In this document: positions 12,037 to 43,597 of the stretch, piece by piece | Layout of the letters: each line of letters opens with the position of its first letter | Numbering within the stretch: position 1 is the stretch's first letter | Notes under the pieces: generated by a model | The model's input: the letters and a program-made list of their open reading frames with translations, nothing else | Databases searched by the model: none | What the model was told of the DNA's origin: nothing | Position numbers and translations under genes: made by a program | NCBI GenBank assembly: GCA_001004905.1 | Contig: LCRY01000002.1 | Span: 115,577-179,576 of the forward strand | DNA: 64,000 nucleotides | Direction: 5' to 3' | Source of the DNA: Parcubacteria group bacterium GW2011_GWA1_56_13 | GTDB taxonomy: Bacteria; Patescibacteriota; Minisyncoccia; Phycocordibacterales; Phycocordibacteraceae

Positions 12037-12084
12037 GCTATACCACCACACCAACTTTGCGCTGAAGTTGGTGTGGTGGTATAG
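12037..12084. repeat. Perfect 20-bp-stem inverted repeat (ctataccaccacaccaactt ... aagttggtgtggtggtatag) in rnr/rpsP divergent region
   Basis: Exact reverse-complement arms with a 7-nt loop. Right arm carries TGgTATAGT, an extended -10 located 7 nt before the rpsP ATG. Confidence 0.45.
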
Positions 12085-13005: not shown

Positions 13006-13680
13006 ATGATGCGATTCCATCTCATCACGCTTTTCGAGGACGAGTGCGACGCGTACCTTTCGGCGTCCATTGTCGGCCGCGCTCGGAAAGAGAAAAAGAT
13101 ATCGGTCGCCTATCAAAACCCGCGCGATTTTGTAGATAACAAATGGGGAAAAGTCGATGAGCGCCCGTACGGCGGCGGCCCCGGGATGGTAATGTCCGCA
13201 ATGCCCGTTGCCCGTGCTGTTCAACGGGCATTGCGGATCCCGACGAGTCCGCGAGGAGGGATGAAGAAAAGCAGGGCGGTGATTATCTGGTTCTCTCCAA
13301 GCGCGAAGCAATTCACGAACAAAGATGCCGATGCGCTCGCGAAATACGGCGATATCGCGCTCGTCTGCGGCCGCTATGAGGGCATTGACGAACGCGCGAA
13401 GAAAATCCTGAAGACGCTCGCGCCGGTCAAAGAGTTTGCGGTGGGCGAAGCCGTCTACACGGGCGGAGAGGTCCCGGCGCTCGCCGTGGTGGACGCGGTT
13501 ACGCGCCGCCTGCCGGGCGTGCTCGGCAAGGATGCATCAGTGGAAGAACGCCGCATCGCCTCCCGCGCCGTCTACACCCGCCCAGAAACTATTGAATATA
13601 AGAAGAAAAAATATCAAGTACCCAAAGTCCTCCAAACGGGACATCACGCCAACATCAACGCCTGGCGCCAAAAGAGGTAA
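13006..13680 (+). CDS. trmD: tRNA (guanine37-N1)-methyltransferase
   Basis: SPOUT/TrmD motifs: ERPYGGGPGMVM, LVCGRYEGIDER. Confidence 0.9.
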   Translation: MMRFHLITLFEDECDAYLSASIVGRARKEKKISVAYQNPRDFVDNKWGKVDERPYGGGPGMVMSAMPVARAVQRALRIPTSPRGGMKKSRAVIIWFSPSAKQFTNKDADALAKYGDIALVCGRYEGIDERAKKILKTLAPVKEFAVGEAVYTGGEVPALAVVDAVTRRLPGVLGKDASVEERRIASRAVYTRPETIEYKKKKYQVPKVLQTGHHANINAWRQKR

Positions 13681-21289: not shown

Positions 21290-21300
21290 AGCTTCGCGCC

Positions 21301-21392
21301 GCGTGCGATTTTTGAGCACAGCGTAATTTTCTGCTGAAAATTCGCTCCGCTCTCGCGCCATCGCGCTGCGAGAGTCCCAAAAATCGCACGCG
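21301..21392. repeat. ~90-bp palindromic (MITE/RPE-like) element, copy A, intergenic rpoC-dnaG
   Basis: Terminal inverted repeats cgcGTGCGATTTTTG / CAAAAATCGCACgcg and internal ATTTTCtgctGAAAAT palindrome. Second copy at 32251-32338. Confidence 0.6.
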
Positions 21393-21412
21393 GTGCTTCA
21401 CTTAAAATATAA

Positions 21413-21450
21413 AAACGGCGCGGAACCTTGGAAGGTTCTCGCGCCGCCTG
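21413..21450 (-). terminator. Intrinsic terminator for minus-strand small ORF (hairpin + TTTTTATATTTT on minus strand)
   Basis: cggcgcggaacc...ggttctcgcgccg hairpin followed on the minus strand by a T-run. Confidence 0.4.
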
Positions 21451-21463
21451 TCTCGACGATACG

Positions 21464-21622
21464 TCACCATCGCTTTAAGAAGATCCATATAAGAGCGATG
21501 ATGCCGCCCAGCAGAACCATGGTTCCGATGAGATTGGATGAATCGGGTATCCGAATGATGTACATCCCAAGACCGATGTCGCCAATCGCAAGCGTTCCGA
21601 GCACTAACGGTTCGATTTTCAT
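21464..21622 (-). CDS. Small membrane protein (52 aa, 2 predicted TM). Not in the ORF track
   Basis: MKIEPLVLGTLAIGDIGLGMYIIRIPDSSNLIGTMVLLGGIIALIWIFLKRW. SD GGAGGGG 2-4 nt before the ATG; followed by a terminator. Confidence 0.4.
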   Translation of the reverse strand: MKIEPLVLGTLAIGDIGLGMYIIRIPDSSNLIGTMVLLGGIIALIWIFLKRW

Positions 21623-21709
21623 CGCCCCTCCAAGAGTTGAGCTAAATTAATGATTGCATTTATTTCCAGGCCTGTCAAATGTTTGTAAAACGCGGTAAAC
21701 TCAACTGAA

Positions 21710-23389
21710 ATGGCCACCGACAGCGTCGCGCAGATCAAGGAGCGCTTGAACATACAGGACATCATTGCTCCATACGTGAAGCTCAAGAGAGCGGGCAGAT
21801 CGCTCGTGGGTCTGTGCCCGTTCCATAAAGAAAAGACGCCGAGTTTCCATGTCAGCCCCGAGCGCGGCACGTGGCATTGTTTCGGTTGCGGGCTCGGCGG
21901 CGACGGCTTCTCGTTCATCGAAAAAGTCGAAGGAGTGGATTTCAAAGGAGCTCTGAAAATACTGGCGGAGAAGGCGGGTGTCACTATCGAGTATCAGGGA
22001 AGCGGAAATCGCGAAGACGCGTCGAAAAAAGAGCGCCTACGCTCCCTTATGAGCCGTGCAAGCGAATGGTATGCGGGCAAGCTCCCGGGGAGCCCGGCCG
22101 AAGCGTATGCGAAAGCGCGCAGCATGACCGAAGAAACCATCCGCGCGTGGCGCCTCGGCCACGCCCCGGAGGCGTGGCGCGCGCTCCTTGAGGCGCTCAC
22201 GACTGAAGGGTTCACGATAGAAGAACTCCTTTCCACCGGACTTATCAAGGAGGCAGACGGCAAAAAAGGCACGTACTACGACCGCTTCCGCAACCGGCTC
22301 GTGTTCCCGATACGCGACACCGCCGGTCGCGTCGTCGCGTTTACCGGTCGCGCCCTTGCCGCGGACGACCAGGCGAAGTATCTCAATAGTCCGGAAACGG
22401 AGCTCTATCATAAATCCGAGATACTTTTCGGCATGGACTCCGCGAAGGACGCGATACGGACGCGCAAGTTCACGATGCTCGTCGAAGGGCAGATAGACGT
22501 CCTGCTTGCGCACCAGGCGGGCTTTCAGAACGCCGTGGCGCTCTCGGGCACGGCTCTCTCCGAGAAACATCTTGCCCTCATGAAGCGTTATAGCGAGAAT
22601 CTCATGCTTATTCTCGACGCCGACATGGCGGGCCTCAAGGCGACCGCGCGCTCGGCGGAACTGGCCCTGCGGCACGGCCTACGCGTGAAGGCGGTCCGGC
22701 TCCCGACAGGGAAGGACCCGGCGGACCTCGTCAAAGAAGACGCAAAAGAGTTTGCCAAGCGCGTCGCCGCGGCAAAACCAATCGTCGAGTTCTTTCTCGC
22801 GGAGCTTGCGGAGAAAGAGCATGACTCGCACCGCCTCTTGCGGTCCGCCGAAGAGATAGTACTTCCGCTCATACGCGCCATGCCGAGCCCCATGGAGCGC
22901 GAACACTTTACGCAATCAACGGCGCGCGTGCTCGGCTTAAGCACTGAGGCGGTCCGCGAATCCCTCGCGAAATTGCCGCAGGTGCATGCGGAAGAATCCA
23001 TGAAGCGCGCAGGTACCGCCGAAACCGCGAAGCGTTCCGCGCGCCAGTTGCGCGAGGAAATGCTTCTGGCCGTTGTCCACGTGTATCCCGGTACCCCGCT
23101 TGCAGAGCGCATCAAGTCAGAGTATTGTCGAATTACTGGAGCCCATCAGCTTCCCGCTGACGTCCCTCAAGAACCGGCCCTCTTCCAAGCGGAACAGGCA
23201 TTCGGCGAGGAACCTGCGGAAGAAGCGGGAGATGAGCTTCTTCGCGCCTTTGAAGAAGCGACTATTCGCGAGGCGTATCAAGAAGCAGTCACACGGTTGC
23301 GAAGGGCCGAAGCCGCGCTCGATGCGGCGGCGGTTCAAAGTGCACAGGAAGCGTGCGCCGTGCTCTCGGCGCGTCTCTCGGTATTTTGA
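21710..23389 (+). CDS. dnaG: DNA primase
   Basis: CHC2 zinc finger [13 protein letters not shown]...HCFGCG. TOPRIM region ([18 protein letters not shown]). Confidence 0.9.
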
Positions 23390-31644: not shown

Positions 31645-31740
31645 TGCGGGAATTATAACCCATGAGATAACACGTCTTTGATGGTGTGAACTGTCTCGCG
31701 GCACATCAGAAATCGCATGAAATTGTTGTCTTGCGAGAAA

Positions 31741-32547
31741 TTATCTCACGGGTCGAACTACGATAATGCGCGGCTTATCGTACTGGTCGGTGCGTATCGC
31801 GGCTGGAAGACCTTGTCGCGCGAACAGCGCGCACACGGCTTCCGCGTGGCTCGTGTCGCATTCTATCCACGCGACGCCTCCTGTTGCGAGATGTTTCGGG
31901 AGGTCTTTCGCGATGCGGCGGATGACTGCAAGGCCGTCGTCTCCGGCGTACAGCGCGCCGCTCGGCTCGTACTCGGCGACGCTCGACGGAAGCACTTGGT
32001 TGGCGGGCACATAGGGCGGGTTCGCGGCGATGATATCAAACTGCATGCCGGCGAAAGGTTCAAAGAGGTCGCCGATGCGCACATCCGCGCGCGAGCTGTC
32101 GAGGCCGTTCTCGCGTATGTTCTTTCGAATGATTGCCTCGTGCGCGGGGTCGAGCTCGCCGAAATACACCTGTGCGTTCGGCAGGCGCGCGAGCGGCGCA
32201 CAGCCGATAGCGCCGCTTCCGGCACAGAGGTCAAGGAAGTGCAGTTCATGAGTGCGATTTCCGGGCACAGAATCATTTTCTGCTGAAAATGTTCTTCCTG
32301 CTCGATCCGTCGATCTGTGCAGAGTCCCAGAAATCGCACTCATGAGCTGCTCCGTCCACCATTCCGTTTCGGGGCGGGGAATGAGCGGTTTCGAGTCCAG
32401 ATAGATTTTCAGGCCGAGAAAGGGCTGCCAGCCGATGACGTATGCGAGCGGCTCGCCGCGGACGAGCCGCTCGCGGTCCGCTTCGTATGCCGGTGTGCGG
32501 AGGCCGCCGTATTTCTCGTCCAATAGCAGCCGTTCATCTCGGGTCAT
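31741..32547 (-). CDS. prmC: Release-factor glutamine N5-methyltransferase (HemK) carrying an in-frame palindromic-element insertion
   Basis: LDLCAGSGAIG SAM motif, NPPY catalytic motif, PRPETE linker. Linker region expanded by ~25-30 aa that coincide with repeat copy B. Confidence 0.85.
   Translation of the reverse strand: MTRDERLLLDEKYGGLRTPAYEADRERLVRGEPLAYVIGWQPFLGLKIYLDSKPLIPRPETEWWTEQLMSAISGTLHRSTDRAGRTFSAENDSVPGNRTHELHFLDLCAGSGAIGCAPLARLPNAQVYFGELDPAHEAIIRKNIRENGLDSSRADVRIGDLFEPFAGMQFDIIAANPPYVPANQVLPSSVAEYEPSGALYAGDDGLAVIRRIAKDLPKHLATGGVAWIECDTSHAEAVCALFARQGLPAAIRTDQYDKPRIIVVRPVR
32251..32338. repeat. ~88-bp palindromic element, copy B, located inside the prmC reading frame
   Basis: tcatgaGTGCGATTTcc...ATTTTCTGCTGAAAAT...ccagAAATCGCACtcatga; ~75% identical to copy A (21301-21392) with the same architecture. 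Confidence 0.6.
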
Positions 32548-32561
32548 AATGGGAAAACTAG

Positions 32562-32605
32562 CACAAAAAAAAACAACACGCGGCCCCGAAAGGCCGCGTG
32601 TTGTT
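32562..32605 (-). terminator. Intrinsic terminator of the RRM-protein gene (14-bp stem aacaacacgcggcc/ggccgcgtgttgtt; T9 on minus strand)
   Basis: Perfect 14-bp stem; the A9 tract on plus equals a U9 tract after the hairpin on the minus-strand transcript. Confidence 0.65.
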
Positions 32606-32622
32606 TTCTCGGCGAGAGAAAA

Positions 32623-32991: not shown

Positions 32992-33143
32992 GTATTGGAT
33001 TTAACTGATTAACCTCGCCGAAACTGAACACGTGTGGTCTTGTGGACCCTGCGACGCTCGAATACTCTGCGAGTTGGGGGAGTATGACAGGAATATGCTC
33101 GGAACGCAAGCGGCGTAACGGCGCGCTGGGGATAATACCCGTC

Positions 33144-33917
33144 GGGCAATACAAGGTTCCACCTTGTATTGCCCGGCGGTGATAAGATTATCGGCATGAA
33201 TAGAAAAATTTCTTTTGCCGAAGGGGAGTACTATCACGTTTACAGCAGGGGAGTCGAAAAACGCAAAATTTTTTTGGATGGCAAAGATCGGGAGCGCTTC
33301 CAGGCGCTTTTATTTTTGTGCAATGGTTCAAAACCAGTTGTGTATAGATTGATACAAGGTTCCACCTTGTATCAAACTGATGTGGGGGAAAAGATTGTCG
33401 CCGTCGGTGCCTATGCGTTTATGCCGAATCATATTCACATCTTGGTCAAGGAAATTTCAGAAAATGGCATTACTGAATTCATGCGGAAAGTGAACACTGC
33501 CTATTCAATGTATTTCAATAAAAAATACGAGAGAGTCGGGCCTCTTTTCCAAGGTACTTTTGCCGCTGAACATGTAACCCGAGATGAGCACTTGAAATAT
33601 TTATTTGCCTACATCCACTTAAATATCGTAAAACTCATCGAGCCAAAATGGAAAGAAGAGGGAATTAAAGATCTGAAAAAAGCGAGAGGGTATCTTGAAG
33701 CGTACCCGTTTTCGAGTTATTCGAGCTACACCGGGAAAGTGCGCAAGGAAGATACCATATTGTCAAAAAATGAGTTCCCAAAATATTTCTCGCATCAACA
33801 TGATTTCAAAGATTTTGTTGACGAATGGCTCACATTCGGCCCGCAAAATTTTGACCCGTAGCACAGAATTCCAGTACAAGGTGGAACCTTGTAATACAAG
33901 GTTCCACCTTGTACTGT
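33144..33917 (+). mobile_element. REP-associated tyrosine transposase (RAYT) unit: tnpA_REP gene flanked by REP hairpins
   Basis: REP hairpins gggcaatacaagg-ttcca-ccttgtattgccc at 33144-33176, an internal copy at 33351-33373, and a double inverted copy (44-bp perfect palindrome) at 33873-33917. Local GC ~45%. Confidence 0.7.
33196..33861 (+). CDS. IS200/IS605-family Y1 (HUH) transposase, REP-associated (TnpA_REP/RAYT)
   Basis: YHVYSRGV N-terminal motif, HUH motif MPNHIHILV, catalytic Tyr region AYSMYFNKKY. Start MNRKISFAEGEYYH. Confidence 0.8.
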   Translation: MNRKISFAEGEYYHVYSRGVEKRKIFLDGKDRERFQALLFLCNGSKPVVYRLIQGSTLYQTDVGEKIVAVGAYAFMPNHIHILVKEISENGITEFMRKVNTAYSMYFNKKYERVGPLFQGTFAAEHVTRDEHLKYLFAYIHLNIVKLIEPKWKEEGIKDLKKARGYLEAYPFSSYSSYTGKVRKEDTILSKNEFPKYFSHQHDFKDFVDEWLTFGPQNFDP

Positions 33918-37037: not shown

Positions 37038-37115
37038 TCGGTTTTCTCCACATAAACAACCCCCGCTTCGGCGGGGGTTGTTTATTTGTGAGATTCATTG
37101 TATCGTGATGACCAC

Positions 37116-43542: not shown

Positions 43543-43561
43543 GCTGGTTCGACAGACGAAA

Positions 43562-43597
43562 AGCGCGGTACCGCCAGGCGGTACCGCGCTTTTTGTA
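43562..43597 (+). terminator. Strong intrinsic terminator (14-bp stem agcgcggtaccgcc/ggcggtaccgcgct + TTTTGTATAT)
   Basis: Perfect palindrome with a following T tract 20 nt after the dsbA-like stop. Confidence 0.65.

Follow-up and report, generated by a model that had tools for sequence, protein, structure and literature searches.

The 64-kb stretch of DNA analyzed here (contig LCRY01000002.1, positions 115,577 to 179,576, of Parcubacteria group bacterium GW2011_GWA1_56_13; referred to as the window, whose coordinates are used throughout) contains a gene for the release-factor N5-glutamine methyltransferase PrmC (HemK), the reading frame of which runs straight through a palindromic DNA element. 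This element, designated copy B, belongs to a family of branched palindromic repeats that also occur between genes, as exemplified by copy A, the other copy of the window. [quoted passage not shown]

The host gene (31741-32547, minus strand) is intact and codes for a protein of 268 amino acids. Its product matches the HemK family model TIGR00536 with 126.1 bits, above the cut-off of 115.5 bits, and the model TIGR03534 with an E-value of 2.7e-51 and 174.5 bits, which is below the NCBIfam equivalog cut-off of 199.1 bits; it is also matched by the Pfam model MTS and by HemK chains from the PDB (at about 1e-17), and contains both the S-adenosylmethionine (SAM) motif LDLCAGSG and the catalytic motif NPPY. 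Residues 70-101 are encoded by the element (32 codons, 32245-32340, minus strand; peptide SAISGTLHRSTDRAGRTFSAENDSVPGNRTHE, with STDRAGRTFSAENDSVPGNR as predicted tryptic peptide). A preliminary description of this DNA, made from the sequence alone, had placed about 30 additional residues in the linker between the N-terminal domain and the SAM motif. The position agrees with our results, while the number has to be divided into the 32 codons spanned by the element and a net gain of only about 24-28 residues, which separate the N-terminal part from the SAM-binding strand. The linker comprises 35 residues, compared to 11 in the Thermotoga HemK (residues 69-105 of the query against 114-126 of the chain), and the spacing from ETEWW to LDLCAGSG amounts to 40 residues, compared to 12-17 in insert-free orthologs. 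In the AlphaFold2 model, residues 75-97 show a predicted local distance difference test score below 50 and connect a helix (59-72) with the first strand of the methyltransferase domain (102-107), in keeping with the surface loop considered in the preliminary description; the insert is thus predicted to be disordered, and may well be harmless to the protein. Note that the N-terminal region of this PrmC and its relatives is far shorter than in the solved HemK structures, residue 26 of the query corresponding to residue 71 of the Thermotoga enzyme. Two orthologs (from loci L013 and L014; L001-L025 designate loci fetched from other genomes or metagenomes, and P-numbers the PrmC homologs) appear to begin even later, and a homolog with 98% identity (P0001) lacks six residues (LVRGEP).

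Copy B extends from 32239 to 32352 on the minus strand and is recognized by the covariance model of the family (R1) with 108.9 bits when the window is scanned with filters off, and with 109 bits in the scan over multiple loci. The prmC coding strand is the one bearing TTTTCAGCAGAAAA, and the sequence at 32246-32345 reads TCATGA-GTGCGATTTCCGGG...CCCAGAAATCGCAC-TCATGA. The window contains exactly two occurrences of the 20-mer arm TCATGAGTGCGATTTCYGGG, inverted relative to each other, at 32246-32265 (plus) and 32326-32345 (minus); none of 100 dinucleotide shuffles yielded a match. As determined by an inverted-repeat search, the arms extend to 25 nt on either side, are 92% complementary and lie 60 nt apart. 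They form the basal stem P1, one arm of which (32241-32265) includes the hexamer TCATGA at 32246-32251 and the conserved GTGCGATTT, the other one (32326-32350) AAATCGCAC and the hexamer at 32340-32345. Enclosed by P1 are two hairpins read from the minus strand: P3 (32269-32295) represents the most conserved part of the family, with the stem AUUUUC/GAAAAU and the loop AGCA, and codes for F-S-A-E-N, while P2 (32298-32322; coding strand CUGC-ACA-GAUC-GACG-GAUC-GA-GCAG, with a loop of the GACG type and a purine-rich internal loop) varies in sequence among the copies but retains its pairing. Folding energies of -61.6 to -62.8 kcal/mol were calculated for the copy B region on either strand, which correspond to z-scores of -9.0 to -9.4 against shuffled sequences; the z-scores of the copies included in the fold analysis ranged overall from -7 to -9. 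These data bear out the preliminary description of a palindromic repeat lying in frame within a continuous prmC reading frame, and also its statement that the open reading frame (ORF) on the opposite strand (31717-32286) shares the element peptide, since this ORF does end in ...FMSAISGHRIIFC (C-terminal peptide ...MSAISGHRIIFC). The extent assigned to the element, 32251-32338, covers a palindrome that is indeed present, but the true unit is larger and includes the paired stem from about 32239 to 32352. Likewise, the TCATGA hexamers reported on both sides do exist, but are positioned inside the stem rather than outside of the element.

The palindrome recurs far from prmC. Copy A (21290-21402, minus strand; 117.9 bits in the window, 118 bits in the multi-locus scan) is non-coding, begins right after the stop codon of rpoC (21289) and has the same absolute orientation as copy B, to which its core repeat (21303-21390) is 73% identical. 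A DNA search pattern consisting of three conserved blocks was run on 185,579 species-representative genomes and on metagenomes, yielding five sites in the former and seven in the latter, all 12 of which proved to be true members with different flanks. The five genome sites are located in metagenome-assembled genomes labelled Kaiserbacteria, Nomurabacteria, Patescibacteria, "bacterium" and, in one case, Saccharibacteria. The covariance model was built from 14 copies and then scanned over the window and the fetched loci, where it retrieved nine further copies, resulting in 23 copies in all; copies A and B are its only matches in the window, even if scanned with filters off. None of the nine copies recovered by the model would match the strict pattern, which therefore misses variants. 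Looser patterns applied to viral contigs returned only chance matches (L006-L008) instead of family members, which is why the stricter ones were kept for the genome and metagenome scans, at the price of a limited census. The copies collected in this way come from Paceibacteria/Kaiserbacteria-like genomes, members of the Patescibacteria or candidate phyla radiation (CPR), and from metagenomes. Two copies each are found in the window, in the 8-kb locus L011 and, in tandem, in L005. No Rfam family matched the window at gathering thresholds, and a search with both copies at E-values up to 10 returned only weak chance hits, scoring 11-17 bits compared to thresholds of 35-200, to precursors of microRNAs and to a cis-acting element of Rubella virus. 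A hammerhead or any other three-way-junction ribozyme was considered and rejected, as the conserved cores are not present in the junction and it is matched by no model. Full-text literature searches retrieved no description of palindromic elements in Patescibacteria/CPR.

The copies measure about 85-115 nt (copy B about 110 nt), or more if a second palindrome is nested in them, and share a Y-shaped fold, in which the basal stem P1, the variable hairpin P2 and the conserved hairpin P3 meet in a three-way junction. The inner half of P1 is conserved in most copies (GCGAUUU.../...AAAUCGC), whereas its outer part of at least 9 bp differs in sequence in every copy, uses all four pair types and yet keeps its pairing. 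P3 corresponds to AUUUUC-AGCA-GAAAAU, with ATTTTC-NNNN-GAAAAT being invariant in the two window copies. The basal stem of the window element amounts to 19-28 bp; across the family, whole stems comprise 12-28 bp, mostly start and end with GC and have GAA-rich borders; in two of the prmC subtypes introduced below (types III and V), even the inner stem GCGATTT/AAATCGC is replaced. In an alignment of 22 copies, 95.0% of the cells in paired columns form standard pairs, compared to 70.2% in shuffled alignments, and none of 500 shuffles scored as high; sliding the partners by one to three columns reduces the value to 36-49%. Changes on both sides are seen in 31 of the 34 pairs. RNAalifold reports compensatory changes in 21 of 34 pairs. 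P2 is 100% paired, with double changes in all three of its pairs, and the pairs of P3 are UA or CG in 20-22 of the 22 copies, while the base of this helix covaries. The two strands are not equivalent in these folds: the strand with UUUUCAGCAGAAAA folds more stably in each of the 22 copies, and the per-copy folds contain 43 G-U pairs on this strand against 22 on the other. Among the first 14 copies, however, G-U and A-C were nearly balanced (seven against six, no bias), and the 22 copies do not represent independent tests of strandedness, because inherited purine-rich loops supply part of the energy asymmetry.

How the element behaves inside a coding sequence was followed in the 120 top-ranking PrmC homologs, which all derive from Paceibacteria-like organisms, and in the prmC DNA obtained for 13 orthologs. 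Among the 120 homologs, with or without the element, ETEWW and LDLCAGSG are separated by 12 to 68 residues. Orthologs with 68-76% identity carry inserts homologous to that of copy B (AISGTLxRxTxRAGGTFSAENDSVPxN...), and the covariance model recognizes the insert in 10 of the 13 orthologs with available DNA, at 54-114 bits, with two copies in L005. The ortholog alignment proposed in the preliminary description thus displays the insertion, some orthologs having an extended linker and others a short one. Two findings that, according to the same description, would have contradicted an insertion did not appear: the inserts of the relatives are homologous to the repeat on the DNA level rather than being unrelated long linkers, and an assembly error is ruled out by the presence of the element in many independent assemblies (NCBI, ENA, JGI and Logan). 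All 12 prmC copies with known DNA sequence are open, in frame and free of stop codons; they come from 11 genes, one of which contains a tandem pair, and include three genes (four copies) recovered by the DNA pattern and not by a protein search.

At least five subtypes of the element are present in the PrmC linker, and they jointly use all three reading frames of one and the same DNA motif. Types I, III and IV read TTT TCA GCA GAA AAT as FSAEN (TFSAEN), type II (L013, L014) reads ATT TTC AGC AGA AAA as IFSRK (IFSRKL), and type V (L023) reads ATT TTT CAG CAG AAA AAT as IFQQKN (IFQQ[EK]N). Types I and IV follow each other in tandem in the prmC gene of L005, and those of L017 and L021 contain an extra 57-nt palindrome nested in the P3 loop, which is AT-rich with GCGAAGCG at its center (L017:10196-10366 and L021:2207-2377) and codes for ATLFSYERSELENKKYSCG. 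Compensated changes in the stems alter residues on both arms, as seen from the peptide pairs MSA...RTHE, MHA...RMHE and TNA...RICE, with the matching DNA arms GAGTGC/GCACTC, GCATGC/GCATGC and CAAATGC/GCATTTG. Among the type I copies, leaving out the close pair L017/L021, in which element and flank are equally similar, the nucleotide identity amounts to 0.77-0.90 within the element and to 0.69-0.73 in the flanking gene. At third codon positions the difference widens to 0.75-0.91 within the element against 0.46-0.55 in the flanking gene, where selection acts on the protein (69-77% amino-acid identity) and third positions are close to saturation. Taken together, the use of three frames, the compensated changes that replace residues and the conservation of third positions show that it is the nucleic acid that is constrained, with the peptide as a by-product.

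Judged by its occurrence in many orthologs, the prmC insertion is old and does not represent a recent event in this genome. A neighbor-joining tree of the 120 PrmC cores, by which one ancient insertion might have been distinguished from several, turned out to be star-like, with identical "empty" linkers placed far apart, and allows no conclusion on this point. Among all copies with examined genomic context, prmC was found as the sole coding host. The sense peptide, compared with 1.84 billion representative proteins, gave one spurious match to a repeat protein, a weak result since clustering at 50% identity probably hides the PrmC proteins bearing the insert, and a profile of the peptide from the antisense frame matched none of 5.8 billion proteins.

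Many prmC orthologs do not contain the element, or contain unrelated palindromes in the same linker, such as those in the prmC genes at L024:10001-10810, L025:10001-10774, L020:6996-7727 and L022:10001-10807. One of these linker families codes for ..RKMGVGLG..SAPIFRP.. or ..ESFSVVRLGLAARSA.. (about 22 of the 120 homologs), another one for ..MSKWSGRPKGGDPRTFA.. or ..KVWPSEARRPEDF.. (about 10 of 120). Even the "empty" linkers KKVRTSDVLTF (L020) and NVGTSYVPT (L022) are encoded by perfect short hairpins with arms of 14 and 13 bp, respectively, and a similar hairpin could be encoded for THVGRRTSYM, as concluded from back-translation only. Some palindrome is present in the prmC linker of every lineage examined, the "empty" ones included. 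The more general idea that every linker constitutes an outlier hairpin proved to be partly true: the folding energy of the linker is the lowest of the gene in most orthologs, except for L020, L023 and L024, whose linkers nonetheless hold perfect short inverted repeats. Further insertions were noticed elsewhere in these proteins. In some orthologs, a second site of PrmC (FEPF|...|DM; P0012, P0013 and P0054) carries an insert of 19-20 residues, ATNFSCPYSDLEKWKYSCG, which is similar to that of the nested 57-nt palindrome. Small in-frame inserts were also found in L013 (PTFAKASSGK), L014 (SACHPTNQVG) and, N-terminally, in P0015 and P0017 (PYFAKASKD). In-frame mini-insertions seem to be common in these proteomes.

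The non-coding copies occupy short intergenic spacers within housekeeping operons and are often in contact with a stop codon. The sites are located behind rpoC (copy A), a ribonucleotide reductase gene and smc, in the nusB-rnc, lepA-divIC, khpA-trmD and rpsB-tsf spacers, and upstream of a release-factor gene; in addition, the divergent fba-pfkB spacer is filled by an element. The lepA-divIC site (L003/L009) and the fba-pfkB site (L010/L015) each hold the element in two different genomes, with diverged stems. In co-directional operons, the strand with TTTTCAGCAGAAAA is antisense to the genes in eight cases (L001, L002, L003, L004, L009, both copies of L011, and L012) and sense in one (L022), whereas it is sense in all 12 prmC copies. 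Copies sharing a locus also share their absolute orientation (the pairs of the window, L011 and L005), which may reflect the direction of replication; the GC skew over 64 kb is too noisy to orient the copies in this respect. The antisense copy at L001:6463-6575 is situated 78 nt upstream of a gene for a class-I release factor (L001:6653-7594; PCRF and RF-1 domains), the substrate of PrmC. This is the only functional link noticed between two host sites, and is probably a coincidence.

The core of copy A is nearly identical to that of L022:1666-1778 at an unrelated locus, in a genome whose PrmC is 63% identical. The site of copy A behind rpoC is subject to turnover: L023 and L024 contain other, unrelated hairpins there, and the site does not exist in L025, where dnaG starts within 5 nt of the rpoC stop codon. 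The rpoC-dnaG spacer is highly plastic as a whole: beyond the element, it comprises, in the window (21403-21710), a hairpin resembling a terminator and a short ORF in convergent orientation, at least three unrelated perfect hairpins in L023:20245-20510 and L024:19715-19945, and next to nothing in L025:18500-18615.

A plausible course of events for a mobile palindromic repeat would be that a copy entered the prmC gene of an ancestor of the lineage at the flexible linker by which the N-terminal part of the protein is joined to its methyltransferase domain. The prmC frame reads through this copy, which may have survived because its length kept the frame, its coding orientation was free of stop codons and the extra residues could be accommodated as a disordered surface loop. 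The hairpin might since have been maintained either by selection on the folded RNA or on single-stranded DNA, or by template switching between its arms. In the latter process, known as quasi-palindrome correction, intrastrand template switching keeps the arms complementary and extends a palindrome into its flanks without any need for selection. It would fit the sequence variation of the outer stems as well as those prmC arms that include the E-Q-L and E-L-R codons, and should be slowed in this gene because both arms code for protein, the silent sites of one arm facing coding sites of the other. Being a mutational process, it leaves the conserved branched core and the spread to unrelated loci unexplained; for the spread, a hairpin-dependent mechanism acting on single strands may serve as a guess.

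The ends of the copies show a further pattern. In prmC copies of types I and II, the stem begins at GA|GCA(A/G)CTC, representing the conserved E-Q-L codons, and ends with GAGTTGC|GA, so that the right arm (codons E-L-R/H) mirrors native prmC coding sequence, and the unrelated palindrome of L025 (GAGGAACTGTTG...CAGCAGTTCC) mirrors native sequence in the same manner. This mirroring suggests that the palindromes either grow into their flanks or insert into pre-existing hairpins. Separately, the long GC-ended, GAA-bordered stems are straddled at both ends by heptamers similar to GCGAAGC, arranged as direct repeats, at several non-coding copies (window 21290-21402, L001:6463-6575, L004:5706-5816, L009:599-711 and L010:159-267). 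GCGAAGC forms an extremely stable DNA mini-hairpin, and these borders may act as a recognition or cleavage tag.

Several observations weigh against a mobile repeat that is merely tolerated. The usual signs of mobility are missing: no target-site duplication was detected at the copies examined, there is no sharp terminal boundary, as the pairing runs 5-15 bp past the conserved core in a copy-specific way, and no parent transposase with matching ends was found among the fetched loci, whole genomes not having been searched for one. The copy number is low, with a single strict-pattern site in a complete Kaiserbacteria chromosome of 993 kb and only five over all species genomes scanned, although this count is lowered by the variants that the pattern misses. 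The 14 copies known from the DNA pattern alone comprise four in prmC and 10 in non-coding DNA, and none in another gene. The copies at orthologous positions (prmC, lepA-divIC and fba-pfkB) are still 93-100% paired, which is unlike a decaying selfish relic and fits a selected structure, and the strand asymmetry hints at a strand-specific RNA or a form of single-stranded DNA instead of a purely double-stranded palindrome.

These points lead directly to the strongest competing explanation, which we consider unlikely on balance: the hairpin may be a strand-specific three-way junction of RNA or single-stranded DNA that is itself under selection, rather than selfish DNA, and the prmC copy may be kept because the structure matters at this position. 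As an RNA acting in cis, it might serve as a site for RNase III or decay control, as a ribosome pause at the domain boundary of PrmC, or as a stabilizer of 3' ends behind stop codons; alternatively, an enzyme that binds hairpins might recognize it as single-stranded DNA. The PrmC linker of the Paceibacteria would then be a dedicated landing pad that repeatedly captures palindromes, which could be caused by hairpin-specific machinery inserting new palindromes into or beside existing ones, or by a strong structure at the domain boundary controlling the production of PrmC. In favor of such a selected fold are the very strong covariation in every helix, the conservation of the element above that of its host gene, third codon positions included, copies that persist at orthologous sites even though the proteins of the genomes are only about 65-76% identical, and the stabler UUUUCAGCAGAAAA strand with its excess of G-U pairs. 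The near identity of the cores of copy A and the L022 copy at unrelated loci, the position of non-coding copies next to stop codons within housekeeping operons, the palindromes of some kind in all prmC linkers and the low copy number point in the same direction. However, the orientation is unfit for one common RNA function, being antisense in the operons in all but one case and sense in prmC throughout, and a near-perfect duplex of 25 bp within coding sequence should impede translation or attract cleavage rather than be of benefit. Moreover, no particular sequence can be required in the linker, since many prmC orthologs are devoid of the element or contain unrelated palindromes; paired arms also co-evolve by template switching without selection, and the energy asymmetry derives in part from the inherited loops.

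Clearly less probable is a change in the mechanism alone, with the element being either a classical MITE with terminal inverted repeats that duplicated TCATGA upon insertion, or a REP sequence moved by the neighboring Y1 transposase in the manner of the REP-associated tyrosine transposases (RAYTs). The inner stem GTGCGATTT/AAATCGCAC does resemble terminal inverted repeats, and TCATGA stands on both sides of copy B. As judged from the sequence, though, TCATGA is a palindromic hexamer inside the stem and not a target-site duplication, and looks like a direct repeat only because the hexamer is itself palindromic. Every other copy is flanked by inverted complements that are copy-specific and non-identical (e.g., CCGC/GCGG, GACAA/TTGTC and CTGTAG/CTACAG), which identifies the flanks as part of the stem, and the pairing extends 5-15 bp beyond the core. 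In favor of a RAYT-type process, a gene for an IS200-like Y1 (HUH) transposase is located only 0.8 kb from the element (33169-33861, plus strand; Pfam Y1_Tnp, 1.9e-08), and the GC-ended stems with their GAA-rich borders, often GCGAAGC, are conceivable as cleavage tags. This gene is bracketed, however, by a different palindrome around TACAAGGTTCCACCTTGTA (33139-33179 and 33872-33916, with perfect arms of 22 bp downstream), and is absent from all 22 other loci fetched that carry the family or prmC; moreover, the element has three to four times the length of a REP sequence. Mobilization of the element by the adjacent Y1 transposase was accordingly rejected. The Y1 gene and its own palindrome rather look like a pair of the REP/RAYT type inserted beside the RRM-prmC cluster and absent from the syntenic loci of the relatives. 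A third copy of the TACAAGGTTCCACCTTGTA palindrome lies in frame inside the Y1 ORF (33346-33378; ..IQGSTLYQTDV..), and the core of this hairpin was also noted at L004:6762, with a loop variant, ACAAGGTTAAACCTTGT, at L022:13787.

It is even more improbable that the element is removed or skipped before the protein is completed, be it as a tiny intron-like sequence, by RNase III excision and re-ligation, or by a translational bypass from TCATGA to TCATGA. The long basal stem joins the borders as in excised intervening sequences, and direct CTCATGA repeats flank copy B, but an element to be removed need not keep the frame, and its preservation in all 12 prmC copies, across subtypes that differ in length and internal frame and including tandem and nested cases, argues against removal before translation. 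Other copies do not have direct repeats, and no ribozyme or intron family matches. A bypass between the two CTCATGA repeats was discarded in particular because the two repeats do not share a frame, and a hop from the first to the second would lose the conserved FLDLCAGSG. Finally, although the length of the PrmC linker varies from 12 to 68 residues in the clade, a chance palindrome in a native, lineage-specific long linker can practically be dismissed, as can an artefact of assembly, given the position of copy A outside of any gene, eleven non-coding copies at unrelated loci in other genomes and metagenomes, the missing matches of the arm in shuffled sequences together with the fold z-scores, and the recurrence of the insert in independent assemblies.

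The preferred interpretation, an insertion-derived palindromic repeat read through by prmC, has its closest counterpart in the RPEs, as had been proposed in the preliminary description. The likeness holds for the in-frame, translated palindrome, but does not extend to the many unrelated host genes of the RPEs, as prmC is the only coding host found here. According to the account given in PMC10969869, RPEs are likewise hairpin repeats of about 100-150 nt with intergenic copies and in-frame copies in housekeeping genes, which are translated as surface segments tolerated by the fold, and are old and common to orthologs in related bacteria with small genomes. The same account, referring to Ogata et al. 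(2000, 2002), mentions dozens of unrelated host genes and 44 insertions in R. conorii, in contrast to the single coding host of the present family, which moreover resides in another phylum, the Patescibacteria/CPR instead of Rickettsia. RPE families each encode a conserved peptide, whereas the DNA of our element is read in three frames and features a three-way junction, a variable outer stem and strong compensatory evolution. With the REP sequences, their bacterial interspersed mosaic elements (BIMEs) and RAYTs (PMC3733652), the element shares the position of palindromes just past operon stop codons, compensatory changes in the stems, a short conserved tag by the hairpin and, in the window, a nearby Y1 transposase gene. 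REP sequences are simple hairpins of 20-40 nt, highly repeated and normally located outside of genes, with GTAG or CGTC tags (PMC3733652); our element, in contrast, has about 110 nt, is branched and of low copy number, is bordered by GAA- or GCGAAGC-like motifs instead of these tags, and is not linked to Y1 genes in other genomes. The MITEs, such as the Correia elements of Neisseria, ERIC and the QMITEs of Coxiella (PMC5896051, PMC10969869), are similar in being small and non-autonomous with inverted termini, in fusing in frame to host ORFs and in forming RNA hairpins, but they possess defined terminal inverted repeats, target-site duplications and often a recognizable parent insertion sequence, none of which could be shown for the element. 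Long near-perfect inverted repeats with both arms translated and evolving in concert are also known from the coding palindromes in the mitochondria of Nematomorpha (PMC6649704), which differ in being gene-internal sequences of animal mitochondria that do not belong to a dispersed family with non-coding copies.

Some neighboring features are not connected with the family. The window contains five other perfect or near-perfect hairpins with stems of 16-20 bp and short loops (12038-12084, 13195-13237, 32570-32607, 37049-37088 and 43556-43596), which score at most 25 bits with the model and thus stand outside of it; the one at 32570-32607, between prmC and the upstream gene for a protein with an RNA-recognition motif (RRM), looks like a bidirectional terminator. 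About 4 kb from the prmC gene of L022, a reverse transcriptase gene (RVT_1) is located beside a bAvd-like gene (L022:14639-16364), a pair which probably represents a diversity-generating retroelement unrelated to the element.

To our knowledge, textbook examples of palindromic repeats translated inside essential genes come almost exclusively from Rickettsia. Protein-coding palindromic repeats as such therefore have a precedent, and we would rate the phylum as new, and the branched, strongly covarying architecture and the concentration in one linker of one protein as unusual. An unrelated family in the CPR suggests that the phenomenon recurs in small, streamlined genomes, and may offer a second system for studying how proteins absorb inserts. 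The reading of the element in three frames, together with third codon positions conserved above those of the host gene, allows constraint on the nucleic acid to be separated directly from constraint on the peptide. Inserts of this kind inflate and diversify CPR proteins and may lead to errors in sequence alignment, domain modelling and the prediction of structures, and annotation pipelines are blind to the family because it is absent from Rfam. If the structure proves to be functional, a gene of translation termination would harbor an in-frame element for regulation or recognition that is of a new kind, and that would represent, more generally, a new class of structured elements within coding frames, in which the fold of the RNA or DNA, and not the peptide, would be the object of selection.

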